A stretch of DNA of 64,000 bases from an uncultured Candidatus Saccharibacteria bacterium. GTDB lineage: Bacteria; Patescibacteriota; Saccharimonadia; Saccharimonadales; Saccharimonadaceae. This document shows positions 41,877 to 53,282 of the stretch, piece by piece (position 1 is the first letter of the stretch; each line of letters begins with the position of its first letter). Position numbers and translations under genes: made by a program. The stretch lies in NCBI GenBank assembly GCA_947367565.1, contig CANBEI010000001.1, positions 4,976 through 68,975 of the forward strand, in the 5' to 3' direction. The notes under the pieces are model-generated. The model made no database searches, had not been told where the DNA came from, and saw nothing but the letters and a program-made list of their open reading frames with translations.

Positions 41877-41913
41877 AGACCAAGAAAATGTAAAAAATAC
41901 ATTTTCTTGGTCT
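41877..41913 (-). terminator. Rho-independent terminator directly after tRNA-Leu
   Basis: 16-bp perfect stem AGACCAAGAAAATGTA/TACATTTTCTTGGTCT, followed by T-rich sequence on the minus strand. Confidence 0.85.
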
Positions 41914-41997
41914 GGTGCCCGCGACTGGATTTGAACCAGCACGCCTTGCGGCATATGCTCCTAAGGCATACGTGTATACCAATTTCACCACACGGGC
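41913..41997 (-). tRNA. tRNA-Leu (anticodon UAG), long variable arm, CCA encoded
   Basis: Minus strand reads GCCCGTGTGGTGAAATTGGTATACACGTATGCCTTAGGAGCATATGCCGCAAGGCGTGCTGGTTCAAATCCAGTCGCGGGCACCA. Acceptor stem 7 bp, anticodon loop CTTAGGA, T-loop GGTTCAAATCC. Confidence 0.9.
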
Positions 41998-45080: not shown

Positions 45081-45109
45081 ATTATAGCATACTTTTTGAT
45101 TTTTGTCTA
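45081..45109 (-). promoter_or_regulatory. Promoter TAGACA-17-TGCTATAAT overlapping the recG stop codon
   Basis: Minus strand reads CTAGACAAAAATCAAAAAGTATGCTATAATGG. A ~110-nt leader follows. Confidence 0.6.
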
Positions 45110-47185
45110 GTTTAGGGTAGTGAGTTGCTGATATTTCTTGATGCGCGTAGCGAGTTCGGGGTAGTTTTGAAGATTTTCGGGATGTTTGACAAACTCGGAA
45201 GCATGATGGCTAGCCTGAGCAATAAGCTGCGTATCTGTCAAATTTGCGACTTGGAGATTCAGTTCACCATGCTGTTGCGAACCGTAAATTTCGCCCGGGC
45301 CGCGGATTTTGAGGTCGACTTCAGCAAGATGGAAGCCGTCAGTTGACTTTTCCATTTCACGCAAGCGACGCGAAGGTTTACCTTCGCCGGTCGTGAGAAG
45401 GTAACAACTCGCCGGCTGATCGCCACGACCGACGCGCCCGCGAAGTTGATGAAGCTGGGCAAGGCCATAGCCTTCGGCGTCTTGGATGACGATCATATTA
45501 GCATTCGGCACGTTAACGCCAACTTCAACGACCGTGGTCGAGACGAGGATTTGAATTTTACCAGCGGCGAAGCGGGTCATGATGACATCCTTTTCGTCGG
45601 GCTTCATTTTACCGTGAAGCATGTCGACTTTTATCTTCGGAAAAAGTTTAGCGAGTTTCTTGGCCTGTTCGATGACTGGAGTAGCAGTATTGGCATTTTT
45701 TTCTTCAATTACCTGGCAAATCCAATAAATTTGCTGGCCCTTGGCCAAGAGTTCGCGCATCGCAGGATAGAGCTCGTCGCGCTGCTCGATCTCAGGAAGA
45801 ATTTTAGTGACGATCGGTTGACGCCCGGGGGGAAGCTCGTTTAGAAGCGAAACGTCGAGGTCACCGAAGACGGTGAGCTGGAGTGAACGCGGAATCGGAG
45901 TGGCGGTCATCGAAAGGAGGTGTGGGGCAGTGTTTTCGGGCGATTTCAAAAGGAGTTTTTGGCGTTGACCGACGCCAAAACGGTGCTGTTCGTCGATGAT
46001 ACAAAATGCCAGCGAATGGAAATGCGTATCGTCCGTAAGCAGCGCGTGCGTACCGACGACAAAGTCGATTTCGCCCTGTTCGATGAGTTTTTTCAGCTGG
46101 CGTTTGTCGCGAGTTGAGCCGGTCAAGAGCGCAATCCGTGGCATGCGCCAGGAGATCCCCTGTCGCTGTAGTGCGCCGCCGAGCATGCTAAACAATTCTC
46201 CGAGGCTCTCGAAATGCTGAGTGGCGAGGATTGCGGTCGGAGCGAGCAGGGCGGTCTGATAGCCGTTTTTCGTGGCCTCGGCGGCGGCAAGGGCGGCGAC
46301 GATAGTTTTACCGGAGCCGACGTCTCCCTGGAGCAGGCGGTTCATCGGCGTGCCGCGCTCAAGGTCTTGCAAAATTTCCCAAGTCGCGCGACGCTGAGCG
46401 CCAGTAAGTTTGAATGGCAGATGCTGGACGATGGCTTGGATAAATTTAGCTTCAAATTTTAGTGGGATTGATTTTAAACGTTGATTTTCCTGCTTATTGA
46501 GTTTGGCGGCAAGGATTAATTCAAATAATTCTTCATAGGCGAGATATTCGCGACCCTTCTCGGCATCTTCAGGGCTTTCGGGAAAATGTGAATTATAGAG
46601 CGCCTCGGCACGCGCGCCTTTCGTAATGAATTTTGGCGCACCGTCGGTTAGAGGCAATAAATCTGGAATTTTGGCGAAGTCAGGACGTAGGCCGTCCATT
46701 AGCTTATGAAAAGTCTGGGGCTTGATGACGCTCTTAGCCGAATAAATCGGCTGGAAGCCGGCCGCGGAATCTTGCTCGACGTCTTGGACGAGAGCGGCGC
46801 TGGGCGAAGTGAGTTGATAGCGCCCACTCTTGAATTCATAAGTGCCAGTGAAATAATACTCGCGCTTTTCATCAAATTGTTTGGCGCGGTAAGGTTGATT
46901 GAACCAGAGCGTACGAATCGCGCCAGTATCATCGCGAATGACGCCCTGAGTGATTGTCAGGCGTTTGCGGCTGGTACGGACGAGGCGCAGGTCGCTAATT
47001 TTACCGCGAATGACAACTTTTCCGGGCCGCAAATCGGCAATCTTGACCGTTGTCTGGTAGTTTTCATAAACACGCGGGAGACAATAGACGAGGTCGCCGA
47101 TAGTGCGCAAGTTGACCCGCCGCAAAACTTCGGCGGTCTTCGGGCCAACTCCTTTCACTGACTCAATCGGCGCGGATAAATCCAT
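45107..47185 (-). CDS. recG: ATP-dependent DNA helicase RecG
   Basis: Wedge domain N-terminus, GDVGSGKT (Walker A), DEQHRFG and QLRGRVGRG. Confidence 0.9.
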   Translation of the reverse strand: MDLSAPIESVKGVGPKTAEVLRRVNLRTIGDLVYCLPRVYENYQTTVKIADLRPGKVVIRGKISDLRLVRTSRKRLTITQGVIRDDTGAIRTLWFNQPYRAKQFDEKREYYFTGTYEFKSGRYQLTSPSAALVQDVEQDSAAGFQPIYSAKSVIKPQTFHKLMDGLRPDFAKIPDLLPLTDGAPKFITKGARAEALYNSHFPESPEDAEKGREYLAYEELFELILAAKLNKQENQRLKSIPLKFEAKFIQAIVQHLPFKLTGAQRRATWEILQDLERGTPMNRLLQGDVGSGKTIVAALAAAEATKNGYQTALLAPTAILATQHFESLGELFSMLGGALQRQGISWRMPRIALLTGSTRDKRQLKKLIEQGEIDFVVGTHALLTDDTHFHSLAFCIIDEQHRFGVGQRQKLLLKSPENTAPHLLSMTATPIPRSLQLTVFGDLDVSLLNELPPGRQPIVTKILPEIEQRDELYPAMRELLAKGQQIYWICQVIEEKNANTATPVIEQAKKLAKLFPKIKVDMLHGKMKPDEKDVIMTRFAAGKIQILVSTTVVEVGVNVPNANMIVIQDAEGYGLAQLHQLRGRVGRGDQPASCYLLTTGEGKPSRRLREMEKSTDGFHLAEVDLKIRGPGEIYGSQQHGELNLQVANLTDTQLIAQASHHASEFVKHPENLQNYPELATRIKKYQQLTTLN

Positions 47186-47210
47186 AATTAATATTATAGC
47201 ACCGCCGCGA

Positions 47211-47909
47211 CTATGGCTGTTTCCGCTCCGTCCTCAACCGGCTCTGCTCCGCGCGCCATTCAGCAATCTTACCATGATGGCCAGAAAGCAAAACTTCCGG
47301 CACCGCCATCCCGCGAAACTCGGCCGGCTTCGTATATTGCGGGTATTCGAGATTATCACCATCGGAAAAACTTTCAATCGCCGCCGAATTCTCGCCGCCA
47401 AGTACGCCCGGTAATAGGCGCGTAATCGAGTCAATAATAATCAGCGCAGGCAGTTCCCCGCCAGTCAAGACATAGTTCCCAAGCGAAATTGGATAGTCGA
47501 CAATGCTCATGATGCGCTCGTCGTAGCCTTCGTAGTGAGGGCAAAGGATAATATAATGCTGCGTCTGGCTTTGAGGGCGGCCACAGTCAACTCCAGCGAA
47601 CTGTCTCGCTAGCTCCTGCGTCCAGACCGTGCCGACGGGCGTGGGGAGAATGACTTCAGCGGATGGGTCATCAGCTTTGACACTTTCAATCGCTGCAAAA
47701 ACCGGCTCGCAGCGCAAGAGCATGCCGTCGCCACCACCGTACGGAGTATCGTCGACTGATTTATGCGGACCGAGACCAAAGTCGCGCAAATTCACATAAT
47801 CAATCGCAATGATTCCGCGATCCTGCGCCTTATAAAGCATCGAGCTATTGAGATAAGGTTGTAGGGCCTCGGGGAAAAGCGTAATCAGCGTGAATTTGAG
47901 CGGTTTCAT
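47211..47909 (-). CDS. trmD: tRNA (guanine37-N1)-methyltransferase
   Basis: FTLITLFPE..., DDTPYGGGDGMLL and LTGGELPALIIIDSITRLLPGVLG. Confidence 0.9.
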   Translation of the reverse strand: MKPLKFTLITLFPEALQPYLNSSMLYKAQDRGIIAIDYVNLRDFGLGPHKSVDDTPYGGGDGMLLRCEPVFAAIESVKADDPSAEVILPTPVGTVWTQELARQFAGVDCGRPQSQTQHYIILCPHYEGYDERIMSIVDYPISLGNYVLTGGELPALIIIDSITRLLPGVLGGENSAAIESFSDGDNLEYPQYTKPAEFRGMAVPEVLLSGHHGKIAEWRAEQSRLRTERKQP

Positions 47910-48037
47910 CTTTCTATTTTGCCACAGATAAACACTTTCGTCAAATTGTAATCCCTCGTAGTAAAAACATATAATAAAATCAGGCAGTTACAAAAACGTA
48001 ACTGCCCTTTAGCCGAGGCTAAACCGATCAAACTAAA

Positions 48038-48715
48038 CTATATTATAGCATTGAGCTGCGTTGGACCGAATCCGCCTTTCGCAATGAACTCTTGAGGAGT
48101 GAAGCTATAAGTACGAAGTTTGCCATAATCAAAAACACTGATTAAGCGTCCGCTTTGCTCCTCTACGTGATACACAAACTCGATGGTCTGCCCCTCTTCC
48201 ATCACGACCGGCGCAGGTTTCATTCTACAGGGATACATCCCTGTTCCATCCTTGCCGATAGCACACTGCGCTTCGGAGCAAGACGGTTCATAGGTGTCAT
48301 AGCCAAAGACTTGGTTAACCTTGCCACAAACCATGAAACATTGACCGAGATAGCGTGCTTCGGCAGGTGAAAGATCTTGTCGGCGACAATGCCGTAGTTC
48401 AGAAACTTTAAGCTGAATACTAAGCCGCGACAACCTACGAGCACAATCCTCAATGTCCGCAGGTTGACCATATTCAAAGATGTCAAAACGACAATAATAT
48501 GGTACGGTCGTTTCCGACCTGCGGCTATGCAGTGAGCGATCAAGCTCACTATAGTTCGGTCCGCCAATCGCATAGTGCCGATTTACCTTTAGGTCGGCGG
48601 CGTTTTTACTGCGCAGCTGACAAAGACCTCCTTCTTCCATCCGTAATGGTTTTCGAGTTGCCGGAATGCGTGCGATGAGTTTACCGACACGCAATTTTTC
48701 TCTATCGGTTAGCAT
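48038..48715 (-). CDS. Hypothetical Cys-rich protein
   Basis: 225-aa ORF with AAGGAGGG upstream. Own consensus promoter and own terminator (GGCAGTTAC/GTAACTGCC). Confidence 0.6.
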   Translation of the reverse strand: MLTDREKLRVGKLIARIPATRKPLRMEEGGLCQLRSKNAADLKVNRHYAIGGPNYSELDRSLHSRRSETTVPYYCRFDIFEYGQPADIEDCARRLSRLSIQLKVSELRHCRRQDLSPAEARYLGQCFMVCGKVNQVFGYDTYEPSCSEAQCAIGKDGTGMYPCRMKPAPVVMEEGQTIEFVYHVEEQSGRLISVFDYGKLRTYSFTPQEFIAKGGFGPTQLNAII

Positions 48716-48770
48716 AATTGCACCCTCCTTAATGTTCTCTATCCGCTACGCAGATAGGCCTTATCTCTTC

Positions 48771-48799
48771 ATTGTAGCACAGAATTGCATTTTTGTCAA
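48771..48799 (-). promoter_or_regulatory. Consensus promoter cassette (TTGACA-17-TGCTACAAT)
   Basis: Minus strand reads GGTATTGACAAAAATGCAATTCTGTGCTACAATGA. Confidence 0.7.
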
Positions 48800-48849
48800 T
48801 ACCGCAGGGTCGGAGATTGATAATTTTTGGACTTTTCGCGCAAAATCTC

Positions 48850-48876
48850 TTGACACGAAACTGTTTGTGCTATATT
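48850..48876 (+). promoter_or_regulatory. Plus-strand promoter TTGACA-15-TGCTATATT
   Basis: TTGACA at 48850-48855 and extended -10 TGCTATATT at 48868-48876. No protein gene follows on this strand. Confidence 0.5.
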
Positions 48877-48882
48877 CTAAGT

Positions 48883-49135
48883 ATAAGCTGGTACGCTTCA
48901 CAGGGGTTCCACTGAATACGTTTGGTGGAGTGTGGAGACTTTAACAAAAACAAAAACAGCGGATTAAAACAAACCAATGTGCCCCGGGGTGGGCGCGCAT
49001 CAGCGAAAAAGAGACGGTAGCGAAAGCTATCGTCTCTTGCTATTTTAAGCTACGCACATTGGCAGTGCCAATGTGCTGCTTCGGATGTGTGGGCGCGCAT
49101 CAGCGAAAAAGTAGCCATGAGAGTGGCTACTTTTT
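48883..49135 (+). ncRNA. Candidate small RNA with tandem repeat and two intrinsic terminators (alternatively two Cys-containing micro-ORFs)
   Basis: GTGGGCGCGCATCAGCGAAAAAG occurs at 48989-49011 and 49089-49111, each followed by a hairpin plus T-run (49010-49046 and 49111-49135). CCAATGTGC occurs at 48974 and 49068, with its complement GCACATTGG at 49054. Confidence 0.45.
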
Positions 49136-49203
49136 ATACGAAGAAAAACCGCCAGTCGTAACGACCAGCGGTTTCCATAATGACTTGCCCATAACTACGA
49201 AGG

Positions 49204-50172
49204 CTACTTCCTGCAGGCTTTCTGCCACATACGATTCAGGGATATAAGTAAACTGTGCGTATGTTTGCTGATGAATCCGCGTTCTACGGATGCCGCTAAG
49301 AGCGCCTCGGCTGCCTCCGTCGACATCTTGTCGCCCCAAAAATCGAGACAGGCCGCGCGTAAGTCAGGAGCGTTCAGGTCAAGCATCGTGCGCTGCTCCG
49401 GGTGCCATGGCATCGCCAAGGCAATGTCGAGACGCGCTGCCATTTCTTTCCAGTCGCGTTTCACCTCCGGATGATAAAGCAGATCGTTAAGCAAATCCCT
49501 GCTAAGGAAAATCCGTACAGTGTTCGGTCTCATGCCTGGAAAGAGCAAAAGCTCATGCTTAGATTCATTATGTGGCATGAAGTCGTAGCGCTCAAAGCCG
49601 AGCTCCTGCTGCACGCGTTCACAAACTGCCTGGAATAATTCCACCCGACCGTCCGGCTCTGCGACCTCGTTGTCCCATGAACCAGTCTGATTCTGCGGCG
49701 AAAACGGGCAGCCTGTCTCATCGAGCTGACACTCCGCGCAATTCTCGGCGCTCGGTATATGCCCGCTGGAACGACGAAACGTACGACAACTCAAGATCTG
49801 CAGATAACGGCTGATACGCTCGGTATCATGAATGCCGGTTTCTGCCTCCAATGGTTGCCAGTAGGCACCACTTAGCAGTCCGCCACCGCCCCAGTAATAG
49901 CCGTAGTTCCAGTGCGACTGCGCAATGTATGCGTCGACCGTGATCTCTCCAGATTCCAGTTTGCAATAATCTGCAAAGGGCAACGCCAGCATCAGCGGTC
50001 CACGATAATGCATCGCGAGTACCGGGTAGCCCGGTTGCAAAGCCTGGATATAATAATGCCAGCCCGTGCCGTCTTCCCCGATATAATGGATATGGTCTGC
50101 ACCGAGATGAAAACCGATTAACTCTGTAACTTTCTCGCTCAATTCCTGAATAAATGATAATGTAGCTTCCAT
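49204..50172 (-). CDS. Hypothetical protein (322 aa)
   Basis: GAGGAGG upstream of the ATG. Terminator AAACCGC...GCGGTTT at 49146-49174. No recognisable motif apart from the Cys cluster NCAECQLDETGC. Confidence 0.6.
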   Translation of the reverse strand: MEATLSFIQELSEKVTELIGFHLGADHIHYIGEDGTGWHYYIQALQPGYPVLAMHYRGPLMLALPFADYCKLESGEITVDAYIAQSHWNYGYYWGGGGLLSGAYWQPLEAETGIHDTERISRYLQILSCRTFRRSSGHIPSAENCAECQLDETGCPFSPQNQTGSWDNEVAEPDGRVELFQAVCERVQQELGFERYDFMPHNESKHELLLFPGMRPNTVRIFLSRDLLNDLLYHPEVKRDWKEMAARLDIALAMPWHPEQRTMLDLNAPDLRAACLDFWGDKMSTEAAEALLAASVERGFISKHTHSLLISLNRMWQKACRK

Positions 50173-51051: not shown

Positions 51052-51735
51052 TTAAGAGGCGTCTCCGGTATCAATAACAACGACTTCGCTATGTTTGTTA
51101 GTGTGCGCCAGTTGGCTCTTGCGTTCAGGATAGCTAACGTGATAGATGAAAAACACCGTTTCATCCTCGCGCATTTTGTCTTTCGCCTGCATAGCAGCGC
51201 GAAGCGTGATCTTCGGGGACTCAAGGCAAGTTACACCGTCTGGCATGATATAACTATGCGGGATTGCATAATATGCGGATTTATACTTATTCAGCATCCG
51301 ATAGATTGCAACCTCGAGCTCGTCATACGACATGCCCAGATAAACCGTGTACGCCCCATCGTCGCATCCAGCCGGCCCATCAGCCTTGAGATTACTAAGC
51401 CTATCCTCTCGCGTCTGGTCGCTGCGAAACAAAACATAGAAGCCGTCGGCATACTCCTTGGAGTTACACTCATCAATCTCGCAATGGAAAATTGATCTGA
51501 AAACTCTAATGATTAGATGATTAATGCCGGTGGCTAAGCCCAGGCTGAATACCAGAAAAAATACGACCACAAGCTGATAGGCAACCTCCGGAATCTTGTC
51601 ATGAGGTATATCACGACAGAGCACTGTAATACCGCCCAAGCTAATAAAGAGACTCAAAATCATTCCTATTATAGCCGAGAGGAATATAGTGATAACCGTC
51701 AGGATGTCGTATGCTACAGATTTGGTTTTAGTCAT
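51052..51735 (-). CDS. Hypothetical membrane protein (two N-terminal TM helices plus soluble domain)
   Basis: 227-aa ORF with AAGGAGGG upstream and its own consensus promoter. Confidence 0.6.
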   Translation of the reverse strand: MTKTKSVAYDILTVITIFLSAIIGMILSLFISLGGITVLCRDIPHDKIPEVAYQLVVVFFLVFSLGLATGINHLIIRVFRSIFHCEIDECNSKEYADGFYVLFRSDQTREDRLSNLKADGPAGCDDGAYTVYLGMSYDELEVAIYRMLNKYKSAYYAIPHSYIMPDGVTCLESPKITLRAAMQAKDKMREDETVFFIYHVSYPERKSQLAHTNKHSEVVVIDTGDAS

Positions 51736-51863: not shown

Positions 51864-53282
51864 TTATTCTTCAACCAGTGTAAATTCTTTCCCAGCAATC
51901 GAGATAATTGATTCCGGTTCGGCGCCTTGCGAAGTAAGCTCAGCGCGAATACCGAGTTTTTTCATAATATCGCGTAGACGATTAACCGAAGCGTAATTGT
52001 TCAAATCTGTGCGGTGAGCAAACTTTTCAATCTTTGGGCCAGTGACGACAAATTTCACCTCGTCGCCATCTTCTAGCTTTTCGACTTTCCAAGCGTTACT
52101 GGGCTGGGCAGAGGAAAGAGTAATAACAGGCAAAGTTACGACATGCCCAGCTTCTGACTCGGTCGGGGGGGCGCTCTCCTCATCTAAAGATTCGGACCCG
52201 CGCCCGCCCGAGGAGTCGGAGCTCCATGACCTCGCAGAAGCTGAGTATGTCACTGCCCCGTCATCGTCCATCTCAAATGAACCCGGAGCCGTAGACTGGC
52301 TCTTAGCTTCGCGCTTAATTCGCACTAGCTCACGCAATACTTCCGTGATTCCCCGCTTCGCGGCGGAAGAAATCGCATAGACCTTCGCATCGGGATTCAC
52401 CTTTAGGATACTGGCAATCTGCATATCAATAATATCTTGGTCGACACCCTCGCATTTCGTCAACGCGACAATCTCTGGACGGTCACGCAAGTCAGAGTAA
52501 CGCTCCAGCTCTTTGCGAATCACCTGATAAGCCTCACCGGCGTCATCATTATAAACGTCAACGAGATGCAACAATGCCGCCGTGCGATCGACATGGCGAA
52601 GAAAATCATGACCCAGACCCTTGCCGTCAGCAGCGCCTTCAATTAACCCCGGAATATCAGCAATCAAAATATCTTGGTCATCAACCGTCGCGACGCCGAG
52701 CTGCGGCGTCAACGTCGTAAAGGGATAATCGGCGATTTCTGGGCGAGCGTTACTAACGACGCTAAGGAAAGTTGACTTACCAGCATTTGGCAACCCGACT
52801 AGCCCAACGTCGGCAATCAGTTTCAGCTCGAGTGCCGCCTCAAACTCATCACCCGGCTCGCCAACTTCGGCAATCATCGGCGTCTGACGCACGCTTGACT
52901 TAAAATGCGCGTTACCAAAGCCACCGTCGCCACCCTTCGCAATCACCGCTTCCTGCCCGTCAACCGCCAAATCCGCCAGCACGACGCCGTCCTTGCGCAC
53001 AACCGTACCAACTGGTACCTCGACAATCAAATCCTTTCCACCTCGGCCAGCGCTACGTTGACCAGAGCCATTTTTACCGTTCTCAGCTTTCAACTCGGGA
53101 TTGAATCGAAAATCAATCAAGGTATTCGTGTCTTTGTCGGCGCGAAAGATAATACTACCGCCACGACCACCGTCGCCACCGTCCGGACCGCCTTTCGGGA
53201 TATAAATTTCGTGGCGAAACGATACTGCGCCGTCGCCGCCCTTGCCGGCTTGGAGTTTGGCTTTTGCCGTATCGACGAACAT
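51864..53282 (-). CDS. obg: GTPase Obg/CgtA with C-terminal OCT domain and an extra Ser/Gly/Asp-rich linker segment
   Basis: MFVDTAKAKLQAGKGGDGAVSFR, Gly-rich Obg fold, GLPNAGKST, DIPGLIEGA and TKCE. Confidence 0.9.
   Translation of the reverse strand: MFVDTAKAKLQAGKGGDGAVSFRHEIYIPKGGPDGGDGGRGGSIIFRADKDTNTLIDFRFNPELKAENGKNGSGQRSAGRGGKDLIVEVPVGTVVRKDGVVLADLAVDGQEAVIAKGGDGGFGNAHFKSSVRQTPMIAEVGEPGDEFEAALELKLIADVGLVGLPNAGKSTFLSVVSNARPEIADYPFTTLTPQLGVATVDDQDILIADIPGLIEGAADGKGLGHDFLRHVDRTAALLHLVDVYNDDAGEAYQVIRKELERYSDLRDRPEIVALTKCEGVDQDIIDMQIASILKVNPDAKVYAISSAAKRGITEVLRELVRIKREAKSQSTAPGSFEMDDDGAVTYSASARSWSSDSSGGRGSESLDEESAPPTESEAGHVVTLPVITLSSAQPSNAWKVEKLEDGDEVKFVVTGPKIEKFAHRTDLNNYASVNRLRDIMKKLGIRAELTSQGAEPESIISIAGKEFTLVEE
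52148..52243. repeat. GC-rich imperfect palindrome inside the obg linker (96 nt, 32 codons), possible diverged relative of the structured element
   Basis: Perfect outer arms CAGCTTCTG (52148-52156) / CAGAAGCTG (52235-52243), inner GACTC/GAGTC. TTCGGACCCGCGCCCGCCCG resembles TTCAGGACCCGCTTGACCCGTCCCG of copy A. Confidence 0.4.

Follow-up and report, generated by a model that had tools for sequence, protein, structure and literature searches.

Structured noncoding RNA (ncRNA) motifs that belong to a single lineage and whose role is obscure are found in Rfam. Examples include Chlorobi-1 and Bacteroidales-1. Some trans-acting small RNAs (sRNAs), such as SreA and EutX, are derived from riboswitches. 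Saccharibacteria (TM7) live as ultra-small epibionts, and their genomes measure about 1 Mb. To our knowledge, they have very few known regulators and almost nothing is known of their noncoding RNAs. Here we describe a locus in a 64,000-nucleotide (nt) stretch of DNA (the window) from an uncultured Candidatus Saccharibacteria bacterium (contig CANBEI010000001.1). At 48883-49046 on its plus strand, the window carries an ncRNA gene equipped with a sigma-70-type promoter and an intrinsic terminator of its own. It is of the lineage-specific, structured kind. Judged from sequence comparison, this is probably a stand-alone, single-copy gene whose product, a structured RNA of about 165 nt, belongs to a Saccharibacteria family outside Rfam 15. 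The RNA would act in trans, most plausibly as a scaffold for a conserved partner. A description of this RNA was not found in Rfam 15 or in the searchable literature on ncRNAs of Saccharibacteria and the Candidate Phyla Radiation (CPR).

The locus shares several properties with the class that includes Chlorobi-1 and Bacteroidales-1, namely a stand-alone gene with promoter and terminator, conservation of both sequence and fold, presence in one lineage, and variable neighbours. It differs from them in sequence and fold and it lives in ultra-small CPR genomes. The only match to Chlorobi-1 is a 26-nt terminator-like stretch in one family member, L057, with E=0.23. At the gathering threshold, Rfam recognises only a transfer RNA (tRNA) in the whole window. 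When hits up to E<=10 were admitted, the region 48700-49250 gave only terminator-like chance matches (E>=0.23), while the divergent members L232 and L057 gave either none or a 26-nt terminator-like match. The initial annotation of the locus had described a tandem repeat of 23 nt that a known Rfam family might account for; no family in Rfam 15 explains it.

The signals of an independent transcription unit are conserved across the family. In a profile of 202 distinct loci, TTGAC lies at -35 to -31 relative to a conserved AAGCUG with 92-100% conservation per position, and a 17-nt spacer separates it from the -10 element. The latter has the profile TAtTAT at -12 to -7 (T 98%, A 86%, T 75%, A 89%, T 100%). 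The RNA would start at about 48883-48885, as placed from the -10 box. The initial annotation had chosen TGCTATATT (48868-48876) as the second promoter element, with a spacer of 15 nt, and this element overlaps the -10 box TATTCT. At the other end, the stem of the first terminator (49009-49038) is followed by GCTATTTT and has compensatory substitutions in the nearest relatives. A terminator hairpin of -10 kcal/mol or lower (median -16.5 kcal/mol) with a T-run follows the body in 193 of the 202 loci, against 17 of 202 shuffled sequences. Its T-run falls about 35 nt past the conserved core, and the terminator sequence itself is not conserved. Both strands of the locus fold far better than shuffled sequence (z-scores of -6.7 and -7.6), and hence folding energy alone cannot tell which strand is transcribed. 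Because the promoter is near consensus and is preceded by an A-rich region, the RNA would be made constitutively and at a high level. All of the sequence features listed in the initial annotation, including a CA-rich stretch and two ATGs, lie where it had placed them. Its proposal of an orphan promoter-to-terminator sRNA unit that serves no protein gene is supported: the positions of promoter, body and terminator are conserved in at least 202 distinct loci, and the downstream open reading frame (ORF) is convergent in about half of them.

The family was assembled with two independent patterns. A scan of GTDB with one genome per species used a 19-mer from the A/C-rich part of the RNA as its query. 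The 19-mer was present in at least 119 GTDB stretches, and all but one of these were in assemblies titled Saccharibacteria, Nanosyncoccus, Nanosyncoccaceae, "bacterium" or Nomurabacteria. The Nomurabacteria-titled bin accounts for one locus (L057) among the matches listed. A match in Clostridia (L042) was rejected as a family member; only the 19-mer itself matches, and we attribute it to chance. The contig of L083 is 100% identical to the window. The second pattern, which was applied to metagenomes, avoids the 19-mer and consists of three other blocks (GGGTTCC, GTGTGGAG and GGTGGGCGCG). It retrieved at least 120 further loci. Overall, the core RNA is present in at least 246 fetched loci from genomes and metagenomes, with homologues lying within L020-L258. 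The promoter position, three helices and a terminator of variable sequence are conserved throughout. The covariance model built for the family, R1, matches the window once, at 48881-49009 (143 bits, E=3e-34), and gives 82-154 bits for 95 of 100 loci from metagenomes. BLAST searches of phages and plasmids and two pattern scans of viral contigs did not find the RNA, which argues that it is neither mobile nor viral.

The RNA is conserved more strongly than the proteins encoded around it. Across the loci that were compared together with their Obg, TrmD and RecG proteins, RNA identity to the window is 79-100% with a median of 87%. Protein identity in the same loci is 58-87% for Obg (median 68%), 58-90% for TrmD and 54-82% for RecG (median 57%). 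Compared with the nearest relatives, the RNA shows about 98% identity and the adjacent 225-amino-acid (aa) protein 62%. The relative with the 62% identical protein is almost identical to the window from the -10 box through the first copy of the 23-mer, and its promoter spacer has diverged. The usual gene order is Obg, the RNA, sometimes a small ORF, TrmD and RecG on one strand, and in most other genomes the RNA, Obg, TrmD and RecG are all co-oriented. In the window and its two nearest relatives, the RNA (48883-49046) is inverted relative to Obg, TrmD and RecG (45107-47909, 51864-53282). The RNA is very likely important to the cell, because it has a strong promoter, exceeds its neighbouring proteins in identity, and has been retained through changes of gene order.

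The immediate neighbours of the RNA differ widely, and the next downstream ORF of at least 100 aa is convergent in 94 of 193 distinct loci, the window among them. Because of these variable and often convergent neighbours, and because in the window it runs opposite to Obg, TrmD and RecG, the RNA would act in trans. The same evidence largely refutes a cis-acting leader, that is, a riboswitch or attenuator in which a P1-closed aptamer and the terminator behind it set the read-through into genes such as trmD-recG. Such a leader is suggested by a classic riboswitch layout, in which a highly conserved fold closed by P1 stands directly before a terminator, and by the many genomes in which co-directional trmD-recG comes within 45-80 nt after the RNA. 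A trmD gene directly behind the RNA is preceded by an extended -10 box of its own, of the form TGnTAnAAT and 5-9 nt ahead of its ATG (a strict pattern finds it in 24 of 213 distinct loci). The window has an equivalent. Such a trmD would therefore be independent of read-through from the RNA. Terminators of different species are unrelated in sequence, against a constant 3' strand of P1, and no conserved antiterminator complementary to P1 is visible by eye. Even with hits up to E<=10 admitted, no riboswitch family of Rfam matches. The RNA shares with riboswitch aptamers, including those of the SreA and EutX type, a conserved core closed by P1, invariant junction nucleotides and an immediate intrinsic terminator. 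It differs from them in that no gene consistently lies downstream, no antiterminator is seen by eye, its helices covary little and no riboswitch family matches. We consider control in cis very improbable. The trmD arrangement just described also occurs just downstream of the RNA terminator in L024, L027, L037, L051, L054, L065 and L067. With no room for a Shine-Dalgarno sequence between the box and the ATG, trmD appears to be leaderless.

The body of the RNA is about 125 nt long. It folds into a long closing helix, formed by P1 and then P2, with the hairpin P3 and about 50 nt of single strand. The three helices were found in agreement by single-sequence folding, by RNAalifold on 106 genome-derived sequences, and by R1 realigned on 95 metagenome sequences. 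The 23-mer GTGGGCGCGCATCAGCGAAAAAG is the 3' strand of P1 and its partner is the 5' end of the RNA, which the initial annotation had instead folded into a hairpin of its own. In the independent set, 96.7% of the P1-P3 pair cells are standard pairs, versus 37-57% when the partners are slid by 1-3 columns. Double-sided changes occur at three pairs, and none of 500 shuffles reached the observed values. The clearest covariation in the family is at the closing pair of P2, which is G-C in 161 sequences, A-U in 15, G-U in 6 and C-G in 1. In P1, one-sided changes that preserve pairing turn CUUCAC into CUCUGC, CUCCA or CUUCAU against GUGGG. The P3 stem has been rebuilt from other sequence in L031, L040, L136 and L057. 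Of the two copies of the 23-mer, the first has the conserved P1 strand as its core, and the second is species-specific.

Other pairings were considered within the body. The extra GG/CC and ACA/UGU pairs that RNAalifold placed in the A-rich segment were rejected, as GG changes to GA and CC to AC independently. A mutual-information search for more covarying pairs gave only clade-linked signals beyond P1 and P2. Positions 48939 (the C of GGAGAC) and 48961 (the second G of GCGG) co-vary as C-G in 168 sequences, U-G in 5 and U-A in 10. These changes accompany an A to G change in the P3 stem, and all occur in one clade, with too few events to call. They may reflect a tertiary pair or shared ancestry. 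A candidate pseudoknot of 4 base pairs (bp) across P1 would join the 5' leader UAAG (48883-48886) to the CUUA that follows GGAGA (48939-48943). UAAG is found with CUUA in 61 sequences and CAAG with CUUG or CUAG in 26, and many combinations are unpaired. The association is suggestive yet inconsistent. The 5' strand of P1, CUUCACA (48897-48903), could alternatively pair with the invariant UGUGGAG (48931-48937). UUCCAC can pair with either copy of GUGGAG, and the observed variants fit both pairings. An alternative conformer of the RNA is possible on these folding considerations.

Between the helices lie two highly conserved single strands. The block GUGUGGAG (48930-48937) is invariant in 106 of 106 sequences of the genome set, whose search pattern did not contain it, and the AC that follows is at least 90% conserved. 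The block AUUAAAACAAA (48963-48973) is at least 97% conserved in the metagenome set, which was retrieved without this segment. The G before it varies in some lineages, and the flanks CGG and ACC vary too. Conserved single strands of this kind could act by base pairing in trans. The RNA would then be a regulatory sRNA that uses GAUUAAAACAAA and its flanks, or the block containing GGAG, as a seed for U/G-rich mRNA sites or ribosome-binding regions, and P1-P3 and the terminator would provide stability only. The layout is typical of sRNAs: the gene has a promoter of its own, a conserved stretch of the transcript is unstructured, and an intrinsic terminator closes the unit. Action in trans fits the variable and often convergent neighbours, and the most conserved single-stranded block is 11-12 nt long, the size of a seed. 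Base-pairing sRNAs, however, usually conserve the seed and the terminator only, whereas here nearly the whole 125-nt body is fixed, G-U pairs included. In a weak test, complements of the two invariant blocks occur in the 64-kb window at the level of chance (14 versus 8.9 expected, and 2 versus 1.9). Pairing with mRNAs is a possibility that we hold to be rather unlikely.

A second function for such a conserved RNA would be that of a universal housekeeping RNA (6S, signal recognition particle (SRP) RNA, 5S, transfer-messenger RNA (tmRNA) or a fragment of RNase P RNA) so divergent that Rfam models do not recognise it. The strong constitutive promoter, the single copy, the retention in very small genomes and the very high conservation are all like those of housekeeping RNAs. 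The RNase P RNAs of CPR bacteria can fall below Rfam thresholds and are known to escape standard models (PMC8172020). The closing stem with a large internal loop is loosely like that of 6S. Nevertheless, three divergent members gave no match to 6S, SRP, 5S, tmRNA or RNase P models even at E<=10, and ARAGORN finds no tmRNA in the window, only a tRNA-Leu at 41913-41997. The fold has neither the SRP helix-8 motifs nor the helix II-V pattern of 5S, and a length of about 125 nt fits none of these RNAs except 5S. Unlike 6S, it has no long apical stem, and its unpaired region is one-sided instead of forming a central bubble on both sides. The RNA and 6S RNA (ssrS) do share a strong promoter of housekeeping type, a single copy, a long bulged closing stem that joins the ends and a large unpaired interior. 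They differ in that the body here is about 125 nt and not about 185, the unpaired region is on the 3' side only, a hairpin of 6-7 bp takes the place of the long apical stem, and the Rfam 6S models do not match. A disguised universal RNA is improbable. Resemblances to SRP helix 8, 5S, the UGGN bulge of the T-box, the lower stem of Y RNA and a minus-strand hammerhead core were set aside, as neither a model nor a motif supports them.

A coding function was also proposed, with the transcript as the mRNA of one or two Cys-rich micro-proteins (MCPGVGAHQRK... and MCCFGCVGAHQRK...). ATGs do lie inside both copies of CCAATGTGC, and the first is present in 171 of 183 members. It is missing in the other 12, the reading frame differs between species through inserts of 0, 1, 2 or 3 nt behind codon 3, and many members have a stop at codon 8. 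A 2-nt indel breaks the frame already in the nearest relatives, no Shine-Dalgarno sequence lies at a usable distance, and the second ORF is confined to a species-specific insert. The micro-ORFs are hardly credible as the function of the locus.

Among the possible partners of the RNA, we tentatively favour a protein over mRNAs and over the role of a disguised universal RNA, while giving the protein somewhat less than an even chance. The RNA would most likely act as a scaffold that presents its invariant and near-invariant single strands (GUGUGGAG and AUUAAAACAAA) to a conserved partner. This partner would more probably be a protein, in a ribonucleoprotein (RNP) or as the target of a sequestering RNA, than a set of mRNAs, because the helices and loops are fixed in sequence, the G-U pairs are kept and the family occurs in very small genomes. 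By analogy, the conservation pattern seems to resemble that of RNAs recognised along their whole surface, such as RNP components and protein-binding regulators, more than that of sRNAs with a seed and a terminator. Two known kinds of protein-binding regulator offer a comparison. CsrB/RsmZ, with their GGA motifs, and CrcZ, with its A-rich CA motifs, share with this RNA an own promoter, a terminator end and, in the unstructured region, repeated GUGGAG/GGA and A-R-N-type triplets (AACAAAAACAAAAACAGC). The RNA differs in having only two or three GGA motifs, one of them helical and another subject to change (CGG to CGA, CAG or CCG), and an A/C-rich linker that varies freely in length and sequence.

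Several points weigh against the view of this RNA as a protein-binding scaffold with the extent and fold given above. The preference for a protein partner comes from the conservation pattern and from nothing else. Both retrieval patterns fix parts of the sequence, so that the conservation of the blocks is partly circular; for every conserved block, the check was made on whichever set had been retrieved without it. With so little sequence variation in the RNA, covariation is sparse, and support for the helices comes chiefly from conserved pairing plus a few compensatory events, several of which are linked to clades. The positions of both ends are read from promoter and terminator signals only. 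The loci surveyed are those of gut, rumen and related Saccharibacteria.

A bolder extension, which we put forward as a speculative possibility, is that this is a previously unrecognised housekeeping RNA of Saccharibacteria, possibly of the wider CPR, that serves as a subunit or regulator of a conserved protein machine. If so, it would be a stand-in for an RNA thought to be missing from reduced genomes, or part of a new ribonucleoprotein. This would explain why nearly every nucleotide is fixed in a 125-nt RNA of genomes shorn of most regulation. The alignment, the covariance model and the anatomy of the RNA are usable for annotation, for searches of transcriptome and transposon data of the few cultivated strains and as bait for partners. 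The coordinates of the features are collected in Table 1.

Table 1. Features of the ncRNA locus and its surroundings, in window coordinates
Feature	Position	Strand	Basis and remarks
-35 box TTGACA	48850..48855	+	promoter scan; TTGAC at fixed distance in 92-100% of 202 distinct loci, A-rich stretch upstream
-10 box TATTCT, 17-nt spacer	48873..48878	+	family alignment; family consensus TAtTAT
Primary transcript of the ncRNA, about 165 nt (body about 125 nt plus terminator)	48883..49046	+	5' end inferred from the -10 box
P1 5' strand GCUGGU A CGC UUCAC	48887..48901	+	pairs standard in about 97% of cells; U-A to A-U change
P2 5' strand GGGG, pairs with CCCC at 48982-48985	48903..48906	+	closing pair is the top mutual-information pair
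P3 hairpin UUCCACU, variable-length loop, GGUGGAG	48907..48930	+	alignment
Single-stranded GUGUGGAGAC	48930..48939	+	alignment of the genome set
A/C-rich linker, variable in length and sequence	48940..48958	+	alignments
Conserved single-stranded segment CAGCGGAUUAAAACAAACCAAUGUG, near-invariant core GAUUAAAACAAA at 48962-48973	48959..48981	+	metagenome set
P2 3' strand CCCC	48982..48985	+	RNAalifold, R1 realignment, mutual information
P1 3' strand GUGGG C GCG C AUCAGC, core of the first 23-mer	48989..49004	+	folding, RNAalifold, R1 realignment
Intrinsic terminator 1: 13-bp stem (49009-49038), GAAA loop, then GCUAUUUU	49009..49046	+	hairpin scan
Unit 2 insert: palindrome 49054-49076, second CCAATGTGC at 49068, second 23-mer 49089-49111, terminator 2	49047..49140	+	sequence, relatives
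Terminator of the convergent 322-aa gene, outside the RNA	49146..49174	-	hairpin scan; kept beside the orthologous gene end in L008
Extended -10 TGGCAAAAT with TTGACG 17 nt upstream, before the trmD ATG	47909..47960	-	promoter pattern

Downstream of the first terminator, the window carries a second unit. The 23-mer GTGGGCGCGCATCAGCGAAAAAG occurs at 48989 and 49089, with 0 occurrences expected in shuffles. CCAATGTGC is found at 48974 and 49068, and 49054-49062 is its exact complement, which makes 3 copies versus 0.4 expected, a number reached by 1 of 100 shuffles. The complement and the second copy of CCAATGTGC form a perfect 11-nt palindrome (49054-49064/49066-49076). The second terminator has a perfect 12-bp stem (49106-49135) with a 3' arm ending in TTTTT and was left unlisted by the terminator scan tool. 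The initial annotation took these repeats for an architecture of two tandem units, but only 10 of 246 loci carry unit 2, and these belong without exception to the window's own species cluster (the window, L083 and L012-L019, which are 97% identical). The copy in L012-L019 differs at four positions. L001 and L008, the two nearest relatives, lack the stretch between 49047 and about 49140, and R1 does not recognise unit 2 as a copy of the RNA.

Unit 2 consists of an inverted CCAATGTGC(CA) abutting a direct copy, a 12-nt filler in place of CCCGGG, the 23-mer and a new terminator, and it is located exactly between terminator 1 and the terminator of the neighbouring gene. This make-up and position lead us to read unit 2 as a recent, species-specific partial duplication, both inverted and direct, of the 3' module of the RNA. 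The three-way switch proposed earlier, in which the central GCACATTGG pairs with either copy of CCAATGTGC, is not supported as a functional design. GCACATTGG is present only in the lineage-specific insert and the partners are not conserved together in relatives; in the family-wide structure, CCAAU is single-stranded and GUGC leads into P2. A different competition can be recovered in silico, between the two 23-mers, in a read-through isoform and in one species. Read-through of terminator 1 is plausible because its U-tract is interrupted (GCUAUUUU), while terminator 2 has a perfect stem and UUUUU. When the read-through RNA of about 255 nt was folded with P1 forced, the first 23-mer gave -104.7 kcal/mol and the second -105.3 kcal/mol, which makes the two folds isoenergetic, and the palindrome formed its own hairpin in both. 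The two 23-mers of a read-through transcript would, in these models, compete about equally for the 5' strand of P1. At most, unit 2 would add this read-through isoform of about 255 nt, a stronger terminator and a competing second 23-mer. The duplication is a natural experiment in which an RNA gene gains a second terminator and a competing helix strand. A 15-nt direct repeat with 87% identity (GCTACGCAGATAGGC at 48745-48759 and GCTACGCACATTGGC at 49049-49063) joins the 5' untranslated region (UTR) of the adjacent 225-aa gene to the start of the insert. It may be due to chance or be a trace of the origin of the insert.

The genes on either side of the RNA are encoded on the minus strand, the one at 48038-48715 (225 aa) being divergent and the one at 49204-50172 (322 aa) convergent. 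Together with a third ORF at 51052-51735 (227 aa, minus strand), they have no Pfam or NCBIfam match. The three ORFs occupy the interval from Obg to TrmD, which in other Saccharibacteria contains the RNA and no more than one small ORF. The distribution of the 225-aa protein is very narrow, with only three clusters at 90% identity in a collection of 5.8 billion protein sequences, and the contigs that encode these clusters provided the first comparison of the locus with relatives. The flanking 225-aa and 322-aa orphans are lineage-specific neighbours and not partners of the RNA family. The divergent 225-aa gene is served by a separate minus-strand promoter at 48799-48771. Its upstream region (48716-48800, minus strand), with a promoter TTGACA-17-TGnTACAAT and the 5' UTR, is about 80% conserved in the relative whose protein is 62% identical. 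The region includes a small hairpin, CUAUC...GAUAG.

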